DNA of 64,000 nt. It comes from Escherichia coli 042. Lineage in GTDB: Bacteria; Pseudomonadota; Gammaproteobacteria; Enterobacterales; Enterobacteriaceae. The notes under the pieces are model-generated. The model did no database searches. It had not been told where the DNA came from and worked only from the letters and a program-made list of their open reading frames with translations. A program made the translations under genes and the position numbers. Position 1 is the first letter of the stretch. Each line of letters opens with the position of its first letter. Shown here in pieces: positions 19,911 to 60,023 of the stretch. The DNA lies in the NCBI RefSeq assembly GCF_000027125.1, contig NC_017627.1; one strand, written 5' to 3'.

Positions 19911-22900
19911 TCAGTCTCCGCCCAGGGTTTTCTCTTTCTGCAGGTCACGGACCATATCCCGCTCCATCTGCTGCAGACGCTCCTGCAGCAGATTTTCCCG
20001 GGCAACCTCCCGGACCGCTTCCCGCTCCCGTTGTGATTCACGCAGCACACTCTCCGGCAGTGCGGTTTCCCGTTCAGAAGTGGCAGTCCGGTCACGTTCC
20101 TGCCCGGCAATCTCCCTGACAGCCTGCTCTGTTTTGCCATCCGGCAGGTCAGGTTTGTTCTCTGCCATTTTACGGACAATTTCATCTGCGCGACGTTCCG
20201 TTTCACGGCGGATGGCCTCTTCAGCCTGCCGCTGTGCCAGCACTTCAGCTGTAACCGGTTCACCATTTCCGGCCCCCGGCTGGACGCTGTTATCCGGGAT
20301 ATCCCCCCACACGCGGCCACCGGTGATGGCACCGGGATTCCACGGACGACCTTCACCGGCAATTCTCACCACCACACCGCTGTCAGGATTATCACGGGCA
20401 ATCCGGACACCATCCTGCATATTATCAGCCAGCAGGCTTTCTCCGTTACGGCTGCCCTGCAGGGCCACGAACTGCGCATCCCCGCTGCCCTTCACCCGTC
20501 CTTCACCGCTGAATCCCCGCAGCCCGTTTCCGTCATCCGTGGTCAGTGGGTTCAGCCAGATACCGGCGGACCTGCCGTTACGGTCAAACGCCGGCAGTGC
20601 CACATACGGCTGCGGATATTTACGTCCCGGTGCAATAAACCGTGCAGGGCTGTCTCCCCCGGCCAGCCCTGCCTGACGGAGAACGGCACGGCCTGCCGCC
20701 ACGTCCCGCAGTTCCCGTGCCGTACTGAACAGCCGCTCTGCATTCATGACCTCCCGGTCCGGTTTCGGTTCAAACACATCGTGGGCTGTTCCTTTCTGTA
20801 CGGCATTGTTAATGGCATCCGTCCAGCCCTGACGGTTATCGGTGTACACCTGCACATGCTGCTTCATACGCGACAGGGCCACGTAGGCTGACTCAAAGCC
20901 TGCCATCAGTTTCCGGTTACCTTCCGTGCCTTCAAGCGCGATGGCAAAGGTTTCACTCGCCCCCTGCGCACCGTGGGCGGTGATGGCATAGGCCAGGTCA
21001 ATATGTTGCTCTGCCCGCTCCTGTCCGGGGCGAATCACCCGGGTCTGCTGTCCGTCCGACAGCGTGACACTGTCACCGGAAACCGCTGTCACCGTCCAGA
21101 CGCTGTTGGCCACATAACCGCGCTCCCGGTCACTCTTCGTGAAGCGCATCCGGTCGCCGGTTCCCACCCGGATGGTGTCCGGGGTGTACAGTGTGACGCC
21201 TTCAGCCACCGCCTCCCGGGGCGAAATCAGCCGCGTGTTACCTTCCGCATCCTGCAGGGTTATCAGCCCGTCATCCTTACTGACACCGGCAATCCGGTGA
21301 TACACATTATCCACCAGGGCAAGGGCATCCGGGTTATTCTCCCAGGTGGAGAGACGACGCAGTTCCCCGTCGCGTATATTCGCTGTATTCAGGACAGGCA
21401 CCATGACCTGCTCTTTCCCCAGCTCACCGGCCTTTTCCCGTGCATCATGAATCATGCTGTTCAGTACGCGCCGGTCCTCATTCAGGTGCGTGACAATCAG
21501 CGTCTGCTCCCGTGCTTCCGGTGTCCTGCCGGTATAGTCGCGGACAATGGCTTCATACAGTGTCATGGGGACATCCGGGAAAGCCTCGCCTTTCAGCATC
21601 GCCTTCTGCTGCGCTTCTGCCAGTTTCGCTTCCTGGCTGTGACTGAACTCCGTCACGGAGTGCTCCGGTGCCCATGCGCCCTCCAGACGTGGCACCTGAG
21701 ACGGTTTCACACTCTCAAGCCCGGACAGTGCCCTTTCCACATCCCGGTTAATCAGGCTGTATACCGCCTCCCGCAGTTCCGGCGTCTGACGCACAATCTC
21801 CTTCATGATGACCACATCGGCAGCACTGCGCGTCTGCTGGAGACGGAAAGGCTGACCGGGCGCGATGGCCTGCAGCTGGTCCGTGTCACCGCTGGCCACA
21901 GCACGACCGCCACCGGCCGCAATCAGGGCGTATGCCCGTGCCATGTCGGTATTGCCCACCATTGAGCTCTCATCGAGCAGGAACAGCGTGTTGCTGAAAT
22001 CCGGCGTTTCTCCGCTGCGCTGCTGCAGCTGCGTGTCATGCAGAAAGGACGCCAGCGTCTGTGCATCCACGCCGGCGCTGCGCATCTCACCGACCGCACG
22101 GTGCGTGGGCCCCAGCCCCACAACTCGGGGACGCTCACTCGCCGGCAGCATGTTCACGGCTGACATCACCGCCCGGAACTGTGTGGTCTTACCCACACCG
22201 GCATAACCCTGTACCACCGTGAAACGGTCGGACGTTTCCAGTATCATGCGGGTGGCGGCACGCTGTCCTGATGTCAGTTTCTCCATGAGTTCGCCAGGTA
22301 CTCTCTCCATCAGCGGCGTGACCGCCTCCTTACCTTCGAGAATATGGCGAAGAATGCTCTTTTCTGCCTCATACGACGCACGGGAAACCAGCAGGCCTGT
22401 GCCATAGCCTTTTGCCACATCCACATACAGTAAATCACCGCGTTTTATCTGCGCATTGATTTCCCCTCCCAGTTCAGTAAAACCGGTTCCTTCTGCAGCA
22501 AACGACTTCGCCTCTGTCAGCAGGTCCACCATGCTGAAGGCCAGGTTTTTACTTTCCAGCACAGGAAGGGCCAGATGAATGGCCTGGTGTGCCGGCGTGT
22601 GCAGCCCGGCTTTCTGCAGACTGATAGCGGTTTCCAGCGATGTCTCACCGGCCCGCGCCTTTATCTGCTCAGAAACCACCGTAAAGGAGGGATGGCGGGC
22701 AAGTTTTTCCGCAGTACGGGTTTCATCCAGTGAGGAATACAGCCGGACATCACGACCGCTGCGGGCCAGACCGTTCAGGGTGGCGTTGTCCATTGCCATC
22801 TGTGTGACGGAGGCAAACACCGTCGCACTGTCACTGACGGAATGCCCGGGCGTTTCCACCCAGCCGTTCTCCAGCTTCAGTGCCGTGAACGGTGAATCGC

Positions 22901-29803: not shown

Positions 29804-32626
29804 TTATTGCTTGTGCTTATCCTGATACTCCTTTGCTCTTTTCATCAGTTCCTGTGGACTGTCAGCACCAGGCATTCTTTCCTGACCCGATTTTTCTTCA
29901 TTATATTTATTATTCTGAGATAATGCCTCTGTTTTATGGTGATTTTGTAGTTCAGAATACTGTCTTCCTACAATATTTTCTTCGCCACGTATGCTGCTCT
30001 GAGTATCTCCGATATTGCCACGATATTCTGTGACCATATTATCAACCTGATGTTTTACATCATTACGGATATTACTGTCCTGCGTTCTTTGCTCAATAAT
30101 GGCCTGATGTCCCTGATGGTCAGCAATAATATTCTGGCTGCCACCGCCCGAAGGTACGCTCTCCATTCCTTTACCGATGTCCCCACGGGATTCACGCCAG
30201 GCATTATCAACACCAGGCTGTACCTGTTCCTGCACAAAAGACCACGCCATAGCCCGACGGCGTTCTGCAATCTCCGGCGAACTGGTATTTGTCAGAATAG
30301 CTTCTGCATCCTGCGGTGCGCGTTTCATCACATACTGTGCAAACTGTTGCGACAGGTCTTCACTCATCTGCCCGCTCATGCTTTCAGTACGGGAGGCCAT
30401 TTCCGCATATTCATGGCTGCGGGTCATATTCGTCGTGTACTGGTCGTAACTCTGTTTCGCTGAGTTCAGGGCTGCAGACAACTGATCCACACGGGAATCG
30501 GCATTATTGTCCGTATGGCTGCCGGATTCACTGACCTTGCGACTGGTAAAGTAATCGCTGGCCTCTTTAAAGTCTTGTGTAGCCCTGGCATCGATATCAT
30601 GGCGAGCATCATGGCTGGCCCGTGAACCACTGCTGGCCTGATGCGCATCCTCATCACTCCAGTCAATACTTGCCCGACCACCACCTCTAACACCTGCGCC
30701 ACCACCAACACCAAGAATTTTAGGTTTAACCCCCCATTCAGCATGAACATCGCCATACATCCCCGCAGAACCTCTCGTACTTCTTGATGCCAGTTCTCTT
30801 GTTGCCTGCTCATTACTGATATTATGCGCCTTCGCATAGCTTTCCACTGCACTGCGCATACGGCTGGCCATCATGGAGTCCTGTGCACTCATGGTGCTGT
30901 CAGCGCCACCGGTGACAGAATCACTGCTCCCCCGGTTAGAACCAAACTGACTGAGCGAGTTCCAGGCACTGGCAATACTGCTGCTGAAACCATGCAGGGC
31001 ACTTTCTGCTCTGTTCGACGCCTCCCGGGCCATTTCCTGTTGTGCCGCTGCAATCTGACGCGTTGCATTGATACCAACCGGTAACCGGGACATCGCTCCG
31101 CTTGCATCCATCACCATATTACCGTCACGGGTCTGTGTGGCAGTTGCGCCACTGCCGGTCTGGTACATCATCTGACCAAACGACGTGGTGCTGTTGGTGC
31201 TCCAGCTGAAGCCGTTCACGTTTTCCGTCTGCATGTTGCCGTAGGAGTAATTACCGTCAACCACACTGCCTGCTGCACTGGCCGTCGGACTGATAGAGGA
31301 AGAGGCGAAGTGGCTGTACACGCTGGAAAAACCTGCGCCAAGGCCTTTTACCATCATCCATGACAACGGGGGGATCATGGCTGAAAGATACCCGGCAGTA
31401 GAGGCCAGGTCAGAGTATTTCAGCTGTATCTGAGAGAGTTCAGACAGCACGACCGGCGCACCATTCATCTTCGCATAGAATGTCATGGCACTGTTCAGAA
31501 TGGCATACAACAACGGCCAGGTCTGCAGCCACATCAGGGCAAACACATAGCCTTTCAGGACGGACAGTGTCAGTTTGTTGAAGACAGCTGCCAGTACCAG
31601 AAGCGGGAAAATACCAATGGCAATTCCCGTCAGGATAGTCTGTACCATTGGCAGGTTTCGCATTGTCACATGACCGATAGAGACATGCGCCAGACGTTGC
31701 TTCTCCATCGATGACGTGGTGGCCAGATTCACCAGGCTGGCGGTGTCACCATTACGGGCGGCATTACTGGTGATACCCTCTTTCAGGGCATTCATGGTGA
31801 CGTTCTGGCGCATAATCTGGCTGGCAGACTGACTGGAGCCGTAGAAATAACTGTAACTGTCACTGACCAGTTGTCTGAATAACAGGTCCGGGTCCGGTCT
31901 GCCGCCAAATATCTGCTGCACATAATAATGCCAGGTCTTGCCTCCCGTCTTTGTATCGAGATTCAGCCTGTCTTTCAGCGTGACCGACGCATCCTTACAG
32001 GTTATGAAATTATTATTGTTGTCATAAACGCCCCGTAGCGGGCTGGGTCGGGAAAAAATCAGCGTGTAGGGGTCAGCGGAGGCCATCAGATCTTCCAGCG
32101 TGTATTTATGATTCAGGTAAATATCACCCAGCACGCAGTTCTGGACGTAGTCCTGGAACAGATTGATGATTTCCGGATTCCGGGACAGGAAATCGGTGCT
32201 TTTCACAATCAGATTCGCCCCGAACAGCATGCCTGTCTTGCTGTAGGTGACGCTGTCCGGTTGGGTGAATATCATCTCGTAGCTGACCACCATCGCATGC
32301 CCGATACGTGTCGTCAGTGAAAGTGGCATCGCCAGACCGACCGGCACATTATCCACCCGATGGACTTTGACCAGGTCACTGTTATCAATAATCTGCACCG
32401 ATGTGCGGACATTAACCAGCAGGCTGATAAGCACAAACACCGCCACCCAGCCCAGTAAATCCATCACGTTGTGCCGCTGTACCCACATAAAAGCCACAGC
32501 AACAACAGACAGGGTGAGCGCAATTTTTTCAATGGAATCCCAGGTCCGGGTACTCATAAATGCTGCAATGGCATTCAGGTTGTTACGCAACCACTCACCA
32601 CCGGCAATCACATAAACTTCATTCAC
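29804..32626 (-). CDS. traG: mating-pair stabilisation / entry-exclusion partner TraG
   Basis: 940-aa polytopic N-terminus plus large periplasmic domain; position in tra order. Confidence 0.9.
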   Translation of the reverse strand: MNEVYVIAGGEWLRNNLNAIAAFMSTRTWDSIEKIALTLSVVAVAFMWVQRHNVMDLLGWVAVFVLISLLVNVRTSVQIIDNSDLVKVHRVDNVPVGLAMPLSLTTRIGHAMVVSYEMIFTQPDSVTYSKTGMLFGANLIVKSTDFLSRNPEIINLFQDYVQNCVLGDIYLNHKYTLEDLMASADPYTLIFSRPSPLRGVYDNNNNFITCKDASVTLKDRLNLDTKTGGKTWHYYVQQIFGGRPDPDLLFRQLVSDSYSYFYGSSQSASQIMRQNVTMNALKEGITSNAARNGDTASLVNLATTSSMEKQRLAHVSIGHVTMRNLPMVQTILTGIAIGIFPLLVLAAVFNKLTLSVLKGYVFALMWLQTWPLLYAILNSAMTFYAKMNGAPVVLSELSQIQLKYSDLASTAGYLSAMIPPLSWMMVKGLGAGFSSVYSHFASSSISPTASAAGSVVDGNYSYGNMQTENVNGFSWSTNSTTSFGQMMYQTGSGATATQTRDGNMVMDASGAMSRLPVGINATRQIAAAQQEMAREASNRAESALHGFSSSIASAWNSLSQFGSNRGSSDSVTGGADSTMSAQDSMMASRMRSAVESYAKAHNISNEQATRELASRSTRGSAGMYGDVHAEWGVKPKILGVGGGAGVRGGGRASIDWSDEDAHQASSGSRASHDARHDIDARATQDFKEASDYFTSRKVSESGSHTDNNADSRVDQLSAALNSAKQSYDQYTTNMTRSHEYAEMASRTESMSGQMSEDLSQQFAQYVMKRAPQDAEAILTNTSSPEIAERRRAMAWSFVQEQVQPGVDNAWRESRGDIGKGMESVPSGGGSQNIIADHQGHQAIIEQRTQDSNIRNDVKHQVDNMVTEYRGNIGDTQSSIRGEENIVGRQYSELQNHHKTEALSQNNKYNEEKSGQERMPGADSPQELMKRAKEYQDKHKQ

Positions 32627-50091: not shown

Positions 50092-50838
50092 TTACTTAAC
50101 ACCATAAAATTCACGAATTATACTTAATAGCGAATCTATTTCTCCTTTATAGATACATGACACTCTGAATAAATCAAAGTGTTCAAAAAATTCTTTTATT
50201 TTCCGTTTAACTGGTTTAATTCGATCCTCAGATGCTCTGTCTGTAATACCCAACTCTCTGGCAATTGTTGCGTGACCAACACCCAGCATATAAAAAGAGA
50301 AAACAACCAATGTCCCTGGAGAAAGATCATTCCATATCGTTAATTTATCAGAAGTATTTGTATTACTTCCACTCTGATTTAACGCAAAAAATGGATAATC
50401 AGGAAACGGATTAATTTGCCATAAAACAACAGATTCGTCATTATAAAAAGAAACATTCTCCATCCTTATCTGATAGATTTCGCCATGAAAATTAAAACGA
50501 CGACAAAATGCAGAGCCATGTCCAAGAGCCTGGCATTCCAGTTCAAGTGATGAAAGAAAAATTTCAACCTGCAGACGTATATAACTCTCTCCGGATAAGG
50601 GTTTATCTTCTCTGGAAAAGAGTTCAATAAAAGCCCCATTGGCATAAAGGATTTTCCGGTTTTTGTTACGGACACAAACCGGAACGGGAGAATTTCTGTA
50701 GATATTCTGAACGTTAAGGATGTATTTATTTACAGATTGACTGTTAAGTGGCCTTTCTCTACGATCCAGCGCACACATAGGAACCTCCGTTAAGGATTCT
50801 ATGGACAGTCGATGCAGGGAGGTCTGAACTCCCTGCAT
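50092..50838 (-). CDS. traJ: tra operon activator TraJ
   Basis: ORF between traY and traM; start codon lies within a perfect 11-bp hairpin (50811-50839). Alternative start at 50778. Confidence 0.8.
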
Positions 50839-50890
50839 CGGCGATTTTCAGTTTCAATTTTTAACGTGGCATTAACCACGTAATTAATAT
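50800..50890 (+). ncRNA. finP: probable FinP antisense RNA region (antisense to the traJ leader and start)
   Basis: Hairpin GATGCAGGGAG-GTCTGAA-CTCCCTGCATC covering the traJ ATG, followed by a T-rich tract. Ends not determinable. Confidence 0.4.
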
Positions 50891-52584: not shown

Positions 52585-53406
52585 TCATGACTTCCACTCC
52601 CTGAACTGTTCGGCAATCATCCATAATGCTTTGTTGATTCGGATATCACCGTCAATGCCTGTAATGGCTCTTGTTCTGGTATTTTTACCGGAGGCACTTC
52701 GCCCCGATAATCCACCTTTTATCATATTCTCCTGAACCCGCTGCCAAGTTGTCCAGAGATCGTTCTGTTTATCCTCCCAACGGCGGGGAGTAATTATTTG
52801 TTCTGGCGTCACTGGCGTTTTATTTTCATCTTCGTACCTAGCCATCAATGCAGCTCTGCCAAATAAATGTTGTTCGTCACTGTTAAGATGTATCTCTTTC
52901 ATTGTCTCCATATTTTCAGTGACTTTATCAAAGACACCGAGCACTTCATACGCTCCCTCAATAACCTGCCCGACAATATCACCTTTATGTGGAACGCGGA
53001 TTTCGCCAAAATTATTCCCACACACCAGGCCATTTGTGCAGACAAAACGAAAAATTCCTGGGATCATCTGATAACTGGATGAACCATCATGTGAATTAAG
53101 CAGGATAATTTCAGGAACTTCTTTCCCGTTAATATGCCCTTCCCTGCGAAGACGTAACATATGTTTACTGTATTCGCGGCGTCCCAAATCACGAACCCGA
53201 CTCTGACAGGCAAAGAACGGCTGGAAACCTTCATCACGTAACTTATTGATGATATTGATGGTTGGGATATATGTATAACGCTCACTCCGGGATTCATGTT
53301 TATCACCAGAAAAGACAGATGGAACAAACTGCATTAATTCGTCATCCGTTAACGGGCGCTCACGGCGAATAGAATTATATCGACCAAAACGGGAAGCTAA
53401 TCGCAT
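52585..53406 (-). CDS. leading-region protein, F orf273-like
   Basis: 273-aa ORF adjacent to gene X; function unknown to me. Confidence 0.7.
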   Translation of the reverse strand: MRLASRFGRYNSIRRERPLTDDELMQFVPSVFSGDKHESRSERYTYIPTINIINKLRDEGFQPFFACQSRVRDLGRREYSKHMLRLRREGHINGKEVPEIILLNSHDGSSSYQMIPGIFRFVCTNGLVCGNNFGEIRVPHKGDIVGQVIEGAYEVLGVFDKVTENMETMKEIHLNSDEQHLFGRAALMARYEDENKTPVTPEQIITPRRWEDKQNDLWTTWQRVQENMIKGGLSGRSASGKNTRTRAITGIDGDIRINKALWMIAEQFREWKS

Positions 53407-53516: not shown

Positions 53517-53813
53517 TCAAATCAGGTCAGTTCGGGACTGACCAACCTGCCGAGTGAAAAGCAGTAACAGCGCGATCAACTCATCAGCGTTTTTTCTGAC
53601 AAGAGGAGTATGATTCTCCAGGCTATCCAGTAAGTCATGCAGCTCATTATTGACCTGATGGAGCACCTTAAAGAGTGCACCAGAATCCCGGCAGCTCTGA
53701 TATGCAAGATTTGCCTGAACAGCACGATTCTGCATGATCCCGATTTGTGCGATTGCGTCTTTCTGCTGATCGCCTGTTGGCTGATAAGTGGTGTTAAAAG
53801 AAAATGCGCTCAT
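53517..53813 (-). CDS. leading-region small protein (98 aa), first gene downstream of Frpo-like repeat 1
   Basis: Start codon abuts the repeat with an SD; helical, no recognised motif. Confidence 0.6.
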   Translation of the reverse strand: MSAFSFNTTYQPTGDQQKDAIAQIGIMQNRAVQANLAYQSCRDSGALFKVLHQVNNELHDLLDSLENHTPLVRKNADELIALLLLFTRQVGQSRTDLI

Positions 53814-53821
53814 AATTCCTC

Positions 53822-54330
53822 CTGTATCTGATGTTTTCAGCCCCCATCATCTGTTGAGTTTCGGGAGCCGCGGTTTTGACGTTTTGCGGGGACCTGCCTT
53901 TTGTTCCCTCCGGTATTCACCATCACCTGTTTGAGAACCTTCGCCGCAAGGGGCATCACTGCCACGGCCTGACGCACCTGTCCTGGGCAGAACGCAAAAT
54001 TTTTTACCGGGTTTTAGGTAAAAAATTTTGTGGTCTGTTCATTTACCCTGGACAGTCAGTGCGGCAGGTTGTGGCTGTATCAGCCCCCGGCGACAGGGGC
54101 TTAAACAGGTGAATGGCACCGGACACAACAACGGGCAGGGACCCGCCGCAACGACGTGAAGCGCGGTTTGCGAAACGGCGTTGCGCCTTACATCCCGGCG
54201 GCCTTTTGCCGGGATGCCAGGAGCGCAGGCCACGGCGCGACAGAGGCGGCGCGACCGGAACGGTCGCTGCAAGCCCGGGGTTTCGCGTCAGGGATGGAAG
54301 CCCGCCAGGGGGACGCCCGGAAAAGACACT
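53822..54330 (-). promoter_or_regulatory. Frpo/ssi-like leading-region repeat, copy 1
   Basis: Shares long near-identical blocks with 59401-59860 and 62797-63250; internal palindrome caaaattttttaccgggttttaggtaaaaaattttg. Confidence 0.6.
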
Positions 54331-54629
54331 GCCAGGAGAACAACAAAACAGACAATAATCAGGGCAGCAGTAATCAGAGTCAGAACAGGAGGAAAAAGAG
54401 AATAATCAAAGGGAAGGTGATGTGATTTCTGACAGGTCATAAACAGAGAAGGCGGGGGAAAAGAACGGGCGCCGCAGGCGCGCGTTCTTCCCCGTTCCCG
54501 GAGGGAAACGGCCTTCCTGGCAGTCTGGTTGTTCATGCCCGCACAATGCCAGCAAGGAGAAAGGGGCCACCGGCGAACCAGCAGCCCCTTTATAAAGGCG
54601 CTTCAGTGCAGTCAGACCAGCATCATCCC

Positions 54630-54655
54630 TGAAAAGGCGGGCCTGCGCCCGCCTC
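54630..54655 (-). terminator. rho-independent terminator after hok
   Basis: Minus strand GGCGGGCGCAGGCCCGCC followed by TTTTCAGGG. Confidence 0.55.
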
Positions 54656-54662
54656 CAGGTTG

Positions 54663-54824
54663 CTACTTACCGCCGGATTCGTAAGCCATTGTTGCCGTAA
54701 CTTCCCTGTATCCGTCCTTCAGCCGGACTTCGCACAGACGATTCCGGGTCAGGAATGTGAATATCAACAACGTGCAGCACACGATTAATACGCACCAGAT
54801 AAGGGCGTTTCCCGGTAGTTTCAT
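54663..54824 (-). CDS. hok: Hok-family membrane toxin (hok/flmA/srnB-type)
   Basis: [53 protein letters not shown]; overlapping mok-like frame 54667-54882 in the ORF track. Confidence 0.85.
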
Positions 54825-55342
54825 GGTTTACTCCTCCTTGCAATTTGCACGGTAAGAGGCCATACTGACGTGGACTAGACATGCAGAGGCCTCGTGGGTT
54901 AATGAAAAATTAACTACGGGGCTTTTGTCCTTCTGCCACACGACACGGTAACAAACCACCTTCACGTCATGAGGCAGAAAGCCTCAAGCGCCGGGCACAT
55001 CATAGCCCATATACCTGCGCACTGACCACACTCACTTTCCCTGAAAATAATCCGGTCGTTCAGCCAGTTCACGGGCTATCAGTTCATCCGCAAACAGTGG
55101 TGCATGCCTGTTGATACGTTTCTCCAGATTCCGCCGTCGTACCGCAGCCTTACGTTCTTCGCTCCAGCGGCGCACCGGGCGGTCAGAAATAAAATCCAGA
55201 CAGACCGCATACCCTGCTCCGGCAACCCAGCGTGACATAACGGATGCCGGTGCAGGCTGCCCCGCCTCCACCACTTCTGAAACCAGTTCATGCTCGCCAG
55301 GACAGGGATAAGGCAGTTTCCAGCGCAGTGAGTAACGCCACT

Positions 55343-56062
55343 TCACGCCGCCTCCCGGAGTTTGTTCGGCACCATCCATCGCTCCATCTCACGGACGGCA
55401 TGACCGGCCTCCCTTGCCGCCATACCAGCCTCTGCGATGACCTGCCAGAACGGCATATCCTGCCACTGCCAGCGTTCCATTCCGGCCAGTGACGGGAAAC
55501 GCTCGCCCCACTGCCAGAACAGGGTTTCCAGGTCATGCTCTGCCACCCGGTCACTCCAGCGTGCATGCCAGCTTCCAACTGTTTCCGGCGAATGGAATGC
55601 CAGTTCGACTTCAGCCTGAGCGACCAGCGCCTGGTACGCACGGGCTTTCTGCTCTGCCTCCCGTGCCTGCTGGCGGCTGTACTTCTGCATGACCAGCGCG
55701 GATTTATGGCGACTGCGCTCCCTGACGCGGAACCGCACCGACGGAAACAACCGCTCTGCTGCATCACCGGGAAGGGGAAGGAGGCAGACCTCGCCCTGTG
55801 TTTCAATCAGCACATCGACGGCATACAGCCACTGAAGACGGCTGCCGTGCAGTTCTTCTGCGGTCAGGGATGGCATGAAAAATCGCAGGTCAGACAGCGA
55901 AATCCTGCGGCTTCCGTTCAGACAGCGGAAAAACGCTCCCGCATACGGATATTCCGCCAGCGTGTTTCCCTGATGGCGGCGTTTTTCCGTCTCCGCCACC
56001 GCCCGCCATGCGGCCTGTTGCTCTGCGCTGAGGGGAACCAGTGTCTGTGATCGTGCGCTCAT
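55343..56062 (-). CDS. psiA: plasmid SOS inhibition protein PsiA
   Basis: 239 aa [32 protein letters not shown].. Confidence 0.9.
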
Positions 56063-56493
56063 GCCTGACCTCCTTCCGCCATCAGGATATGAATGATGTC
56101 GTTAACGCTGTACCCCTGCGCATCCAGTGACGCCGCCAGTGCCAGTGAATGGCTGACAGCTTCCGGTGCAAACCGCCGCTGCACCTGAACCACCGCAAAC
56201 GGCTCACCACCGGCATTCACCAGAACCAGCACCCAGACCTGAGAGACATCGCCCGGTGAACATAACGCCAGGTGAAAACATTCGTGGGCAGGCGTGAAAC
56301 GGACCTGGACGGGGAAAAATCCACCAAACTCGCTGCCGTACTCGCCGTTCATCGTCCAGTTGTCCGGCGCATCCAGTTCCCGCATCACGGCGTGTGTCAG
56401 CTCACGACGTTCATCACTTCCGGCAGCCCGGATATCTTCATATTCCTGTGCGCTCATGGTCTGTAATACATTCAGGGTCAGTTCAGTTTTCAT
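56059..56493 (-). CDS. psiB: plasmid SOS inhibition protein PsiB
   Basis: [40 protein letters not shown]..; overlaps the psiA start. Confidence 0.9.
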
Positions 56494-56547
56494 CACAGTA
56501 TCTCCCTTGCTGCCGCCCCGTCTCCGGCGGGGCGGTGTGGTTGTTCA

Positions 56548-58506
56548 TCAGGCGGCATCAGCCAGGTTATCGGTGCGTTCAGTGGCATCTGTCTGTGGAT
56601 GTGGTGCACACATCCAGCCTGGAACCCAGCGGTTGTCTTTCATATTGTGCTCTGCATGTTCAGCCGCATCACCTTTCTTCATCTTCTCCGCGTCCCGTGC
56701 GGCACCGGACAGCCCTGCCTCATTCAGGGCTGCGATAATCTGCGGCTTTTTCAGGTGTCCGAAGAAGTTTGCTTTTGTCGGCTGCCACCAGTCACGCATG
56801 TGAAAGCCGATGGCGCTTTCCAGCGAGTCAAGCGGACTGCGTGACGTGTGACCACACTCGCGGGTCTGAACGCCGTGGATGCTGCACGCGGTACAGAAGC
56901 TGAGCAGGGATAACAGCACCTCCTGGCTGAGTGACAGGAACGTCGTCATATCCCGTTCCCATCCTTCCGGCAGCAGGGCAGCAAAACGAGAGTGTTCTGC
57001 CATCAGCGCCATGAATGCGGCACCTTCCTTCCCCGACGGTGCATCGCTGGTCAGCGCATAATGCTCACATTCCAGGCGAATTCTGGCGGGACTACTATGC
57101 GCTTTGCTGCCAAACACATTCAGGCAGAGCGTCCATGCCAGCAGTGTCAGGGATTTGTCCGGTTGCTGCATCAGTGCCGCCTGGACTGCCAGCGTGCGTT
57201 CGGAAGACATTTTCGTCAGCAGTGGCAGACTGATTTCCTCCACTGACGCTTTTTCCTGCACCTGTTCCGTGCGGTCAGCGTCGTCAGCCGCATCATCCTC
57301 ACTGCGTAACTGCACACCACGCTGGACACATACGTTTCCATAACGCCAGGACACCACCACTCCACCTCCGGCACGCATCTCCGGCGTCCACGCTCTGACC
57401 TTCGCCATGCAGCGCATCAGCTTCATTTCTGCTTCCAGCAGGTCAGATTCCTCACACTGATTTTCCAGCGCGTCGTAACGCGTCATCAGTTCGTTCAGAC
57501 GTTCTTCTTCCGCCTCCGTCAGCACCGCTTCCGGCTCCGGCAGACAGCGGTATGTTCCGGCATCCTCACGGCACTCACCGACAGGCTCCATGCGTCCGGC
57601 GCACCATCCCCAGCCTTCGGCTTCCCGAAGGAACTCTGCAACAGCCTGGAGTTTTTCCAGCAGGGCGGCATCGAGCGCAACACAGTCCACATAGCCACCC
57701 TCGTCGTCGCTGAACAAATCAGTGCGCAGTTCATCTGGCGAGAAGGCATCAGCCCCCACAAAGCGGAATTTACTGTTCCCCGCCACCGCCACTTCACTTT
57801 CGGTCACCAGACGACGAATGGTCTGTACTTCCGGTTTACCGCCCCATCCCGACTGGCAGGCGGCTTCAAACACCTGCACCTGACGCGCGGTGTCGTTCTC
57901 CAGCGCCAGCGCCTGACAGTGCTCTGTGGTGATGCGGTCTTCTGCCAGCGCATCGAGGATGACAGGCGCAAGGTCTGCCAGTTTCAGCATTCGCTGAACG
58001 TGGCGGGGCGAATAGCCCAGCAAATCACCGATTTGTGCAGGCGTTTTGCCTTCCTGCGCCATCGCACGGAATCCGGCAATCTGTTCGGCAGGGTGCATAT
58101 CCCGACGATGACCGTTTTCAGTCATTGATGCAGCCGTCGCCAGCTCCTGCGGAATAACCTTCACGCGTACAGGCCAGTCAGCCGGAATGATGCCACGCTC
58201 TGCCAGCATGTTGAGTGCTGCCAGTCGGCGACCACCTGCGGCGACACCGTAACGGTCACCAGGCAGGGTATGCACGACCAGATTCTGCAACAGGCCAACG
58301 CCCTTAATGGACTCCGCCAGTTCGCTGACGGACTCTGCGGAATACGGCACAGTGCGCACATTCAGCGGTGATTTAATCAGTGAAGCCAGCGGCACACTCA
58401 CTTCCTCCGTCTGCGCCAGCAGGGCAGACAGGACTGTTTCCTGCGTTTTTGCATATTTACGGCTTGCTTTGCGGGTGGTTTCTGGTTCACACTTCGTTAC
58501 AGGCAT
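56548..58506 (-). CDS. ParB-like nuclease-domain protein of the leading region
   Basis: About 650 aa from MPVTKCEPETT..; ParB/Srx-type N-terminus, acidic repeats mid-protein, basic C-terminus. Confidence 0.75.
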   Translation of the reverse strand: MPVTKCEPETTRKASRKYAKTQETVLSALLAQTEEVSVPLASLIKSPLNVRTVPYSAESVSELAESIKGVGLLQNLVVHTLPGDRYGVAAGGRRLAALNMLAERGIIPADWPVRVKVIPQELATAASMTENGHRRDMHPAEQIAGFRAMAQEGKTPAQIGDLLGYSPRHVQRMLKLADLAPVILDALAEDRITTEHCQALALENDTARQVQVFEAACQSGWGGKPEVQTIRRLVTESEVAVAGNSKFRFVGADAFSPDELRTDLFSDDEGGYVDCVALDAALLEKLQAVAEFLREAEGWGWCAGRMEPVGECREDAGTYRCLPEPEAVLTEAEEERLNELMTRYDALENQCEESDLLEAEMKLMRCMAKVRAWTPEMRAGGGVVVSWRYGNVCVQRGVQLRSEDDAADDADRTEQVQEKASVEEISLPLLTKMSSERTLAVQAALMQQPDKSLTLLAWTLCLNVFGSKAHSSPARIRLECEHYALTSDAPSGKEGAAFMALMAEHSRFAALLPEGWERDMTTFLSLSQEVLLSLLSFCTACSIHGVQTRECGHTSRSPLDSLESAIGFHMRDWWQPTKANFFGHLKKPQIIAALNEAGLSGAARDAEKMKKGDAAEHAEHNMKDNRWVPGWMCAPHPQTDATERTDNLADAA

Positions 58507-58564
58507 AATCATCCCCTTATAATTGCTTATGTCCTGCCGGACGTTCGCGCGTCCGGCACCTCTC

Positions 58565-58798
58565 TTACTTAAGAATGCCGAAATTCCGGATGACATGGTT
58601 CATCCAGTACCCGGCACCGTCCTCAAAATTCCAGGTACGCCAGACCAGGCCACTGTTATTGCGGACAACCAGGCGAAAATGCGTTCCCTGATCATCCTCG
58701 ATAAAGACATTCCGGTACTGTGCGGCAACGGCTTCAGCCTGTTCGCGGGTAAAGGAGCCGTCAGGCAGCCCCTGAAATATTCTGAAATATTCGCTCAT
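58565..58798 (-). CDS. small leading-region protein (YubL-like, position-based)
   Basis: About 77 aa from [14 protein letters not shown]..; between ssb and the ParB-like gene. Confidence 0.55.
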
Positions 58799-59381: not shown

Positions 59382-59400
59382 GATGTGTCTCCTTCTGTTG

Positions 59401-60023
59401 ATGTTTTCAGCCCCCATCATCTGTTGAGTTTCGGGAGCCGCGGTTTTGACGTTTTGCGGGGACCTGCCTTTTGTTCCCTCCGGTATTCACCATCACCTGT
59501 TTGAGAACCTTCGCCGCAAGGGGCATCACTGCCACGGCCTGACGCACCTGTCCTGGGCAGAACGCAAAATTTTTTACCGGGTTTTGGGTAAAAAATTTTG
59601 TGGGCTGTTCATTTACCCTGGACAGTCAGTGCGGCAGGTTGTGGCTGTATCAGCCCCCGGCGACAGGGGCTTAAACAGGTGAATGGCACCGGACAGAACA
59701 ACGGGCAGGGACCCGCCGCAACGACGTGAAGCGCGGTTTGCGAAACGGCGTTGCGCCTTACATCCTGGCGGCCTTTTGCCGGGATGCCGGGAGCGCAGGC
59801 CACGGCGCGACAGAGGCGGCGCGACCGGAACGGTCGCTGCAAGCCCGGGGTTTTCACGCATCGGACCGTAGCGACAGCCCGAAACCGCGCCAGCGGGTTC
59901 GGCGGAGACTGGCGGGTGCGCCAGCAGCTGCCTGTCGGAGTCGGGCCTGACGACCGGATGCCGCCAGGCAGCCGGGAGCCGAAGGTGCGCCCGGCAGACA
60001 GGACAACACTGCAGTAGTCAGAA

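Follow-up and report, generated by a model that had tools for sequence, protein, structure and literature searches.

Anti-defence functions are now known to abound in the plasmid leading region. The closest described relatives of the toxin locus analysed here are the hok/sok (parB) locus of R1, from which the regulatory model for hok/sok is taken (PMC9841398), and the flm locus of F (flmA/flmB/flmC), which is found at the equivalent place of the leading region, shortly after psiA. A transcription unit running from Frpo2 to psiA has also been described in F (PMC9849209), and its layout is matched here. For comparison, NC_002483 was used for F and an R100-like IncFII plasmid in place of R1.

The 64-kb window (the whole stretch of DNA analysed) is the leading region of an F-like conjugative plasmid. 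Two features adjoin on its minus strand, and they are very probably independent of each other: a canonical type I toxin-antitoxin locus of the hok/sok kind, and a real gene for a 104-aa protein coupled to psiA, which we name ORF104 for easy description. The hok/mok/sok part is a standard addiction module of an already known kind, and its value lies in correct annotation only. ORF104 is the more useful result. Overall, this is an ordinary finding with one modest lead, ORF104. The coordinates of the features are collected in Table 1.

Table 1 Features of the psiA-ORF104-hok/sok segment and the flanking Frpo-like repeats.
Feature	Position	Strand	Details
Frpo-like repeats	59399-59698 and 53829-54128		99% identical
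psiA	55343..56062	-	239 aa; PF06952 E = 2.3e-38; NF010258 417 bits
Longest frame of ORF104	55032-55379	-	115 aa from ATG 55379; overlaps psiA by 37 bp
ORF104	55032..55346	-	104 aa; conserved protein-coding gene; last of the psiB-psiA unit
hok/mok promoter	54999..55028	-	-35 TGGTCA, 18-nt spacer, -10 TATGAT; promoter scan
hok -35 box	55023-55028	-	invariant in 6/6 aligned hok loci, F and the R100-like plasmid among them
Full-length mok-hok mRNA	54560..54992	-	~433 nt; from +1 (GGCGCUU...) to the U-tract past the terminal hairpin; ends inferred
tac element GGCGCUUGAGG	54982..54992	-	5' end of hok mRNA; invariant in 6 loci; pairs with fbi
mok Shine-Dalgarno GAGG	54890-54893	-	position equals G105/A106 of R1 (PMC9841398)
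mok leader frame	54667..54882	-	71 aa; overlaps all of hok; DUF5431 E = 6e-37
hok toxin gene	54663..54824	-	53 aa; PF01848 E = 5.7e-16; NF007279
Internal 3'-UTR hairpin	54632..54653	-	GGCGGGC-GCA-GGCCCGCC then UUUU, after the hok stop
fbi element CUGAAGCGCC	54597..54606	-	complementary to tac; invariant in 6 loci
Terminal hairpin of hok mRNA	54560..54591	-	perfect 14-bp stem in the predicted fold
Putative Sok promoter	54838..54866	+	-35 TTGCAA, 17-nt spacer, -10 CATACT; homology and position
Sok-like antisense RNA	~54873..54928	+	~56 nt; ends inferred

ORF104 is the last gene of a unit formed by ssb, a ParB-like gene, psiB and psiA, located downstream of an Frpo-like single-stranded DNA promoter repeat. 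The copy of this repeat at 53829-54128 forms a long hairpin when folded as single-stranded DNA (z = -8.3). Homologous loci keep the order psiB-psiA-ORF104, and psiA and ORF104 overlap in them by 4 bp. As read from the sequence, the TGA stop of psiA overlaps the GTG start of ORF104 (GTGA), and a GGGAGG Shine-Dalgarno sequence lies 4 nt upstream of this GTG. The homologues of ORF104 begin at the aligned position with the same 4-bp overlap. The preliminary description had reported a 115-aa minus-strand frame overlapping the last 37 bp of psiA, and this frame is indeed present; the most likely start is nevertheless the GTG at 55346, the ATG at 55379 being less likely. Through the GTGA overlap, ORF104 is predicted to be translationally coupled to psiA. 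Transcriptome data for pBIC1a show the gene that follows psiA, taken as the ORF104 homologue by synteny, to be nearly silent vegetatively, at the level of psiA and psiB. Early expression of ORF104 from Frpo would be an extrapolation from F, which itself has no ORF104.

The ORF104 protein occurs in 3681 plasmids, mostly of Klebsiella, and falls into at least 224 clusters at 90% identity, with 312 diverged cluster representatives at 50% identity. At least 1000 contigs carry a 104-aa NCBI protein with exactly the same sequence (100% identity), and the annotation of the closest plasmid lists ORF104 as WP_000872086.1. A match to phrog_27524 (E = 4e-23, PHROGs) leads to a family that carries no function label. 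ORF104 is a member of this uncharacterised WP_000872086.1/phrog_27524 family with no difference from it, sharing full-length similarity, the motifs WRYSL-W, PG, GY, RRWS-E-K, RRRN and APLFA-E, and a tyrosine near the C-terminus; these motifs are invariant or nearly so in three family alignments (A1, A2 and A5). The database name of the protein, "theronine dehydrogenase", is a misnomer, as the protein has only 104 aa and neither a dehydrogenase domain nor a Rossmann fold, and a literature search returned no paper using that name. No Pfam or NCBIfam match was found in any of the 54 family members searched, and a profile search of PDB sequences with the family returned noise only. The protein is basic (pI 9.6), and its AlphaFold2 model (mean pLDDT 91.5) predicts three beta-strands in a sheet and, after them, two long helices; the first of these helices, at residues 56-81, is very rich in arginine.

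Distant homologues were identified beyond the enterobacterial plasmids. Mu-like phages carry them in their early regions, where GemA and an MT-A70 methylase follow immediately downstream. Others occur in inovirus-like contigs, and pAMBL2, a Pseudomonas plasmid, has one beside a cytosine methyltransferase. The viral homologues were found with the narrower alignment A5, and the neighbours were called from same-strand ORF lists and targeted Pfam scans (contigs of 64-68% GC). As these neighbours vary from element to element, guilt by association is a weak guide to function. In F and in R100-type plasmids ORF104 is internally deleted; these plasmids do without it, and the gene is therefore dispensable for basic conjugation. 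Like PsiB/PsiA, Ssb, ArdA/KlcA and the orphan methylases, ORF104 is small and common to plasmids and phages. No sequence or fold similarity was found to PsiA, PsiB or known anti-restriction, anti-CRISPR or defence-related families by Pfam, PADLOC and fold comparison, PADLOC giving no match to ORF104.

With PsiA and PsiB, ORF104 shares the transcription unit, the orientation and the tight coupling to psiA. It could accordingly be read as their dedicated partner, a third component of SOS inhibition (chaperone, adaptor or co-translocated factor) that works only with them. In enterobacterial plasmids the gene lies almost always directly after psiA with the 4-bp overlap typical of translational coupling, and PsiA itself is without a known function. 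Both PsiA and PsiB belong to the early leading-region products, and both are translocated into recipients as well (PMC9849209, PMC8406263). Against this stand the homologues that occur without psiA or psiB in pAMBL2, the Mu-like phage early regions and the inovirus-like contigs. Furthermore, psiA is present in at least 5000 plasmids, at least 3957 of them from Escherichia, whereas only 366 Escherichia plasmids carry ORF104, so PsiA works without ORF104. ORF104 matches neither PF06952 nor PF06290, which its neighbours match strongly, and the shared operon is the sole link to PsiA and PsiB. We regard an exclusive partnership as unlikely. Our best guess, a tentative one, is that ORF104 would be produced for a short time directly after conjugation has brought the plasmid into its new host, and would act on host nucleic acid or a host protein, as an accessory factor of the host-takeover or anti-defence type and not as a metabolic enzyme.

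Downstream of ORF104, the intact Hok frame and the overlapping mok-like frame of the preliminary description were both recovered by profile search. Hok matches NF007279 over positions 1-51 of 52 (103.7 bits against a cut-off of 73), and Mok fits the NF010277 equivalog over its full length (141.6 against 110 bits). As expected for the Hok/Gef family, Hok is a small hydrophobic toxin of about 50 residues, and the mok frame overlaps it from upstream, with hok-mok coupling predicted. The locus has the same elements in the same order as F flm and R1 hok/sok: promoter, tac, mok Shine-Dalgarno sequence, overlapping mok and hok, 3' hairpin, fbi, terminator and Sok. Compared with these loci, the 53-aa Hok found here differs by several conservative substitutions and by a GG insertion close to its C-terminus. 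The locus is a mosaic, in which the coding part resembles a Klebsiella plasmid allele more than it does F, and the leader is F-like.

A covariance-model search for the hok mRNA, suggested earlier as a check, returned RF01794 at 54822-54993 (95.2 bits, gathering score 59, E = 1.6e-21), the only such Rfam match within the window. It lies on the minus (hok) strand, covers model positions 1-157 of 157 and stops at the hok AUG; what the model fits is therefore the sense leader and not the antisense RNA. The first base of the match is the predicted start of the hok transcript. Over its whole length the transcript shows 84-86% DNA identity to the F flm locus and the IncFII hok loci. Its minimum-energy fold (-185 kcal/mol, z = -5.95) joins the 5' end to the 3' region, and nt 1-7 of the mRNA pair with AAGCGCC at 54597-54603 in both the minimum-energy and the centroid folds. 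The numbering agrees with that of R1 hok mRNA, for which G4/C5/T6 and the GAGG mok Shine-Dalgarno sequence have been reported (PMC9841398).

Two hairpins were identified in the 3' region. The preliminary description had placed a terminator hairpin downstream of hok; a hairpin is present there, but it is internal, and homology and folding put the end of the full-length RNA about 75 nt further on. The left boundary of 54630 proposed for the module therefore falls short, as the transcript runs on to about 54560 and takes in fbi and the terminal hairpin. In the alignment of hok loci the stem of the terminal hairpin is kept by paired changes in two loci (L007 and L008), and the predicted fold identifies this hairpin as the true terminator of the full-length hok mRNA. 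The internal hairpin is also conserved, with stem changes in the same two loci. By analogy with the R1 model (PMC9841398), its probable role after 3' processing is to protect the truncated, active hok mRNA as a stem-loop. A partial Rfam match to CsrC (E = 0.055) is the hok terminator hairpin picked up as a terminator-like stem, and a match to Betaproteobacteria-1 inside psiA (E = 0.24) is a chance hit. A promoter-like site on the plus strand at 55022-55051 in the promoter scan was likewise treated as chance.

On the opposite strand, an antisense promoter and an RNA structure were both located, the promoter as a putative one. The Sok-like RNA begins with an unpaired stretch of about 10 nt at its 5' end, continues as one long hairpin and finishes in a U-tail; it is complementary to the mok start codon and Shine-Dalgarno sequence. 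Its fold has an energy of -25.6 kcal/mol, which none of 200 shuffled sequences reached (z = -5.86), and the hairpin is conserved in five distinct sequences with three pairs changed on both sides. The putative promoter agrees with the consensus at 8/12 positions, below the promoter-scan threshold. F and IncFII carry TTGCGC-N17-TATCCT at its position, which is conserved in six loci; the hexamers here are CATACT/TTGCAA (-10/-35) against TATCCT/TTGCGC. The R100-like locus has a Sok stem that is 5 nt longer. The RNA has the two marks of an antisense Sok, namely complementarity to the mok start region and a promoter of its own, the latter putative.

The anatomy of the locus is that of hok/sok, and its kinetics and killing would follow those of R1 and F. 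A stable mok-hok mRNA of about 433 nt would be made from the promoter at 54999-55028 and held closed and untranslated by pairing of 5' tac with 3' fbi. Slow trimming of the 3' end would open the mRNA, so that mok, and via mok also hok, becomes translatable. The short and unstable Sok from the opposite strand would pair over the mok start region and block translation. Upon plasmid loss, Sok would disappear first and the membrane toxin Hok would kill the cell. Because the hok promoter, tac, the mok Shine-Dalgarno sequence, fbi, the terminal hairpin and the antisense Sok gene are all conserved, a functional post-segregational killing module, as proposed before, is plausible from the sequence. The module may also guard the 5.5-kb segment between the two 99%-identical Frpo-like repeats against recombinational loss, as has been proposed for F.

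A decayed, non-functional remnant is an improbable reading of the same locus. It would draw on the annotation of close relatives, in which only a Hok CDS of 40-41 aa is given and mok is absent, and on the weak consensus match of the Sok promoter. The short CDS is, however, an annotation choice and not a lesion. The full 53-aa Hok fits its subfamily model end to end above the cut-off, Mok fits the equivalog model at full length, and tac, fbi, both Shine-Dalgarno sequences, both promoters and both hairpins are intact and conserved.

The placement of these elements also bears on the 115-aa frame, which the preliminary description took to cover the region of sok-type control and possibly to be regulatory sequence read as an ORF. 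Sok lies opposite the mok start, and the frame ends at 55032, upstream of the hok promoter; the 3' end of ORF104 is 4 nt before the hok -35 box. Across ORF104 the dN/dS is 0.06-0.12 with saturated synonymous sites, and differences fall roughly 14-23, 13-20 and 53-62 at codon positions 1, 2 and 3, respectively. Judged from these substitutions, ORF104 is a true gene under purifying selection. That the frame is hok/sok regulatory region or psiA 3' sequence reading open by chance can hardly be right: it does lie between two known features without a Pfam or NCBIfam match, and F and R100-type plasmids do lack most of it, but besides the low dN/dS, the saturation of synonymous sites and the synteny with psiA, the protein is conserved down to 35-50% identity across the 312 cluster representatives, its structure prediction is confident, and the hok/sok regulatory elements all lie outside the frame, at 54560-55028.

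In conclusion, a misleadingly named and strongly conserved gene sits in the operon of the plasmid SOS inhibitors. ORF104 is present in thousands of plasmids and absent from those in which leading-region biology was worked out, and it offers an inexpensive and clearly defined candidate for study by deletion and interaction assays. More speculatively, ORF104 could represent an unrecognised family of small early-acting proteins that conjugative plasmids encode in their leading regions, coupled to psiA, and Mu-like phages in their early regions, just ahead of gemA and an orphan methylase; the family would have a fold without a solved relative and would have been overlooked because F and R100 (R1-type) carry the deletion. 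Such a family could provide a new anti-defence or SOS/recombination-modulating factor that aids the establishment of incoming DNA, particularly in Klebsiella plasmids.

The region round the locus is an F-like conjugative plasmid leading region with all its genes on the minus strand, and the reading frames that a preliminary description had listed there are all present at the coordinates it gave, none of them by chance. One of them, a 115-aa frame between hok and psiA, had been left as either a gene or a regulatory region misread as an ORF. A homologue directly follows psiA in all seven homologous plasmids fetched; in six of them its start and the psiA stop share 4 bp, and in the seventh (L009) the start lies 3 nt past the stop. 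In the window, the alignment places the start at GTG 55346; this codon and the psiA stop overlap as GTGA, and a GGGAGG SD sequence stands 4 nt upstream of it. The closest record, the plasmid pTD225C4_139 of E. coli, is 99.1% identical over 1 kb, and RefSeq annotates in it exactly the 104-aa product; the 11 additional codons of the longer frame fall within psiA, outside the conserved protein. We therefore call the gene ORF104 (55032-55346). The psiA of pTD225C4_139 (L001 4789-5562) is annotated as 774 bp and 257 aa, against 720 bp and 239 aa in the window, and the 1-kb alignment falls one base short. In that plasmid, psiA probably runs on across the ORF104 start owing to a 1-nt indel close to its 3' end.

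Features of the leading region and RNA families in the window
Feature	Coordinates	Strand	Remarks
ParB-like protein	56548-58596	-	first in listed gene order
psiB	56059-56496	-	
psiA	55343-56062	-	720 bp, 239 aa
Questioned ORF	55032-55379	-	longest frame, 115 aa
hok promoter	55028-54999	-	TGGTCA, 18-nt spacer, TATGAT; promoter scan
hok/mok	54663-54882	-	
Predicted Sok RNA	~54873-54928	+	10-nt single-stranded 5' tail, long hairpin, U-tail
Putative Sok promoter	54838-54866	+	TTGCAA-N17-CATACT; same position as Sok promoter in F and IncFII
98-aa ORF	53517-53813	-	
DUF932 gene	52585-53406	-	
FinP and traJ leader / 5' UTR	50772-50881 (~50.8 kb)		Rfam
AS-pc01 antisense RNA family	62556-62652		Rfam
AS-pc02 antisense RNA family	18103-18289		Rfam
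AS-traI antisense RNA family	22256-22332		Rfam
AS-traG antisense RNA family	31822-31907		Rfam
ALIL pseudoknot	1577-1693		Rfam

Comparison with homologues from seven Klebsiella and Salmonella plasmids and one Pseudomonas plasmid gave dN/dS values of 0.06-0.12 with saturated synonymous sites, most differences falling at third codon positions (e.g. 14/18/53). The ORF was found by tblastn in 3681 plasmids (2688 of Klebsiella, 366 of Escherichia), by a word-indexed search in 224 clusters, and by an exhaustive HMMER search in 312 cluster representatives (50% identity), the most distant being only about 35% identical to the query; among the 224 clusters is an identical 104-aa NCBI protein that occurs on at least 1000 contigs. 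The conserved motifs are WRYSL-W, PG, GY, RRWS-E-K, RRRN, APLFA-E, and a near-C-terminal Y. The dN/dS values and the breadth of the family settle the ORF as a gene, already catalogued and uncharacterised. Because its stop at 55032 precedes the hok -35 box by 4 nt, ORF104 does not reach any of the hok/sok control elements, and the earlier view that the 115-aa frame covers the sok control region was wrong.

The 53-aa Hok and the 71-aa Mok give full-length family matches above curated cut-offs. RefSeq annotates Hok with only 40-41 aa in pTD225C4_139 (L001 4164-4286) and in the R100-like IncFII plasmid (L003 2664-2789), leaving mok and Sok unannotated; since the 53-aa frame as a whole matches the Hok model from one end to the other, the shorter CDS is apparently an artefact of annotation. 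The covariance-model search for hok/sok proposed earlier returned one RF01794 match in the 64-kb window, at 54822-54993 on the hok strand (95.2 bits vs a gathering score of 59), ending at the hok AUG. Though named "sok", RF01794 detects the sense leader with the Sok target, not the antisense RNA. The first base of this match is adjoined on its upstream side by the hok promoter, whose -35 box is invariant in all six aligned loci, including the F flm locus and the R100-like plasmid. With +1 set at 54992, G4/C5/T6 fall within tac, the 5' element of the hok mRNA, and the mok SD GAGG lies at 54890-54893; under the same numbering the GAGG of L003 is at G105/A106, in agreement with the mok SD published for the model plasmid R1 (PMC9841398).

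The predicted fold of 54992-54558 (-185 kcal/mol, z = -5.95) pairs the 5' GGCGCUU with AAGCGCC at 54597-54603, which in this model is the tac/fbi interaction holding the full-length RNA closed, and places a perfect 14-bp stem in the terminal hairpin at 54560-54591. Both tac and fbi are invariant among the aligned loci, and the hairpin stems show paired changes in more distant ones. The terminal hairpin and its conservation put the predicted transcript end about 75 nt past the hairpin at 54632-54653, so the transcript runs beyond the left edge previously drawn for the module. The latter hairpin exists but is not the terminator it was taken for; by analogy with R1, it probably serves as the stem-loop that protects the 3' end of the RNA once this has been processed into its translatable form. 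The preliminary description had also looked to a sok-like antisense promoter and RNA structure, and both were found in putative form: the predicted Sok RNA (z = -5.86) is complementary to the mok start codon and SD, and its hairpin is kept in five distinct sequences. All the sequence features that define hok/sok are thus present and undamaged, and, judged by sequence, the hok/mok/sok locus is a fully intact example of a canonical system that was already known.

In plasmid F (L005) and the R100-like plasmid, similarity to the window continues as far as the psiA stop (55343) and resumes at 55083, with the last 52 nt of ORF104 and the hok promoter. About 259 nt (window 55084-55342) are exchanged for about 20 nt (L005 7700-7775, L003 3030-3105), and the remaining 52 nt sit just upstream of the hok -35 box. 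Since the sequence between 55343 and 55083 is replaced, these classical model plasmids have an internal ORF104 deletion. More than 5000 plasmids match the 1-kb query, most aligning in two pieces over about 74% of it, and psiA occurs in at least 5000 plasmids (Escherichia contributes 3957 of the best 5000) vs only 366 Escherichia plasmids with ORF104; both observations fit such a deletion.

The ssb...psiA-ORF104-hok segment is bracketed by Frpo-like direct repeats of 300 nt (59399-59698 and 53829-54128; 99% identical, 5570 bp apart), with a third, partial copy at 62788-63000. Folded as single-stranded DNA, 53829-54128 forms a hairpin of about 210 nt (z = -8.3), as would be expected of single-stranded-DNA promoters like Frpo1 and Frpo2 of F. 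In the recipient, the Frpo promoters of F drive the leading genes in a short-lived burst, and the F layout, which the window matches, is Frpo2, ssb...psiB-psiA, flm, Frpo1, ygeA/ygeB (PMC9849209). By this analogy, ORF104 would be the terminal gene of a Frpo2-type unit, one that in F itself is without ORF104. The GC-rich stretch that separates the hok terminator from the Frpo-like repeat (54130-54555) carries several overlapping long ORFs on both strands, such as an 82-aa frame at 54288-54536; no family matches were found for these ORFs, and the stretch is probably non-coding.

Searches with ORF104 in Pfam, NCBIfam, and PADLOC gave no match, none of 54 diverse family members matched Pfam or NCBIfam, and PHROGs returned only phrog_27524, a family of unknown function. 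This makes the widespread label "theronine dehydrogenase" a misnomer; in the literature searched, the name is used nowhere. AlphaFold2 with a 54-sequence alignment produced a confident model (mean pLDDT 91.5), in which three beta-strands (residues 2-9, 20-27, and 46-53) precede two helices (63-81, 83-96) and the chain closes with a short helix at 98-101. Fold searches returned nothing significant. The protein has a pI of 9.6, and residues 56-81 hold 11 Arg/Lys vs 3 acidic residues between acidic flanks.

Distant homologues have a cytosine methyltransferase as neighbour in pAMBL2, a Pseudomonas plasmid, and occur on small contigs with Zot or an inovirus-type rolling-circle replication protein; two cultured phages of Rhodobacter/Rhodovulum also carry them. 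The homologue lies directly upstream of GemA in at least five Mu-like phage contigs, and in three of these an MT-A70 methylase follows, matched by Pfam in L028 and recognised by its motif alone in L029 and L030. Among the Mu-like IMG/VR contigs L020, L021, and L027-L030 (~6000-7600, 64-67% GC), stop and start codons of the homologue and the GemA-family gene usually overlap, an MT-A70 DNA methyltransferase motif follows GemA in L027-L030 (Pfam-confirmed in L028 only), and an HNH endonuclease gene precedes the homologue in L029 and the separate contig L032. In an IncFII(K) plasmid transcriptome, the gene after psiA, assumed from synteny to be an ORF104 homologue, is silent in vegetative cells to the same degree as psiA and psiB (PMC6286996). 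Common to these contexts are genes expressed early by DNA newly inside a cell. We tentatively propose, at somewhat less than even chances, that ORF104 is a small early-made protein whose arginine-rich helix binds host nucleic acid or an acidic host protein, aiding establishment of the incoming element. A dedicated partnership with PsiA ranks lower and seems improbable, as the family is also found without psiA and psiA is commonly found without ORF104. The finding is largely ordinary; what interest remains lies in ORF104, which stands as a clean candidate for some new function of the leading region.
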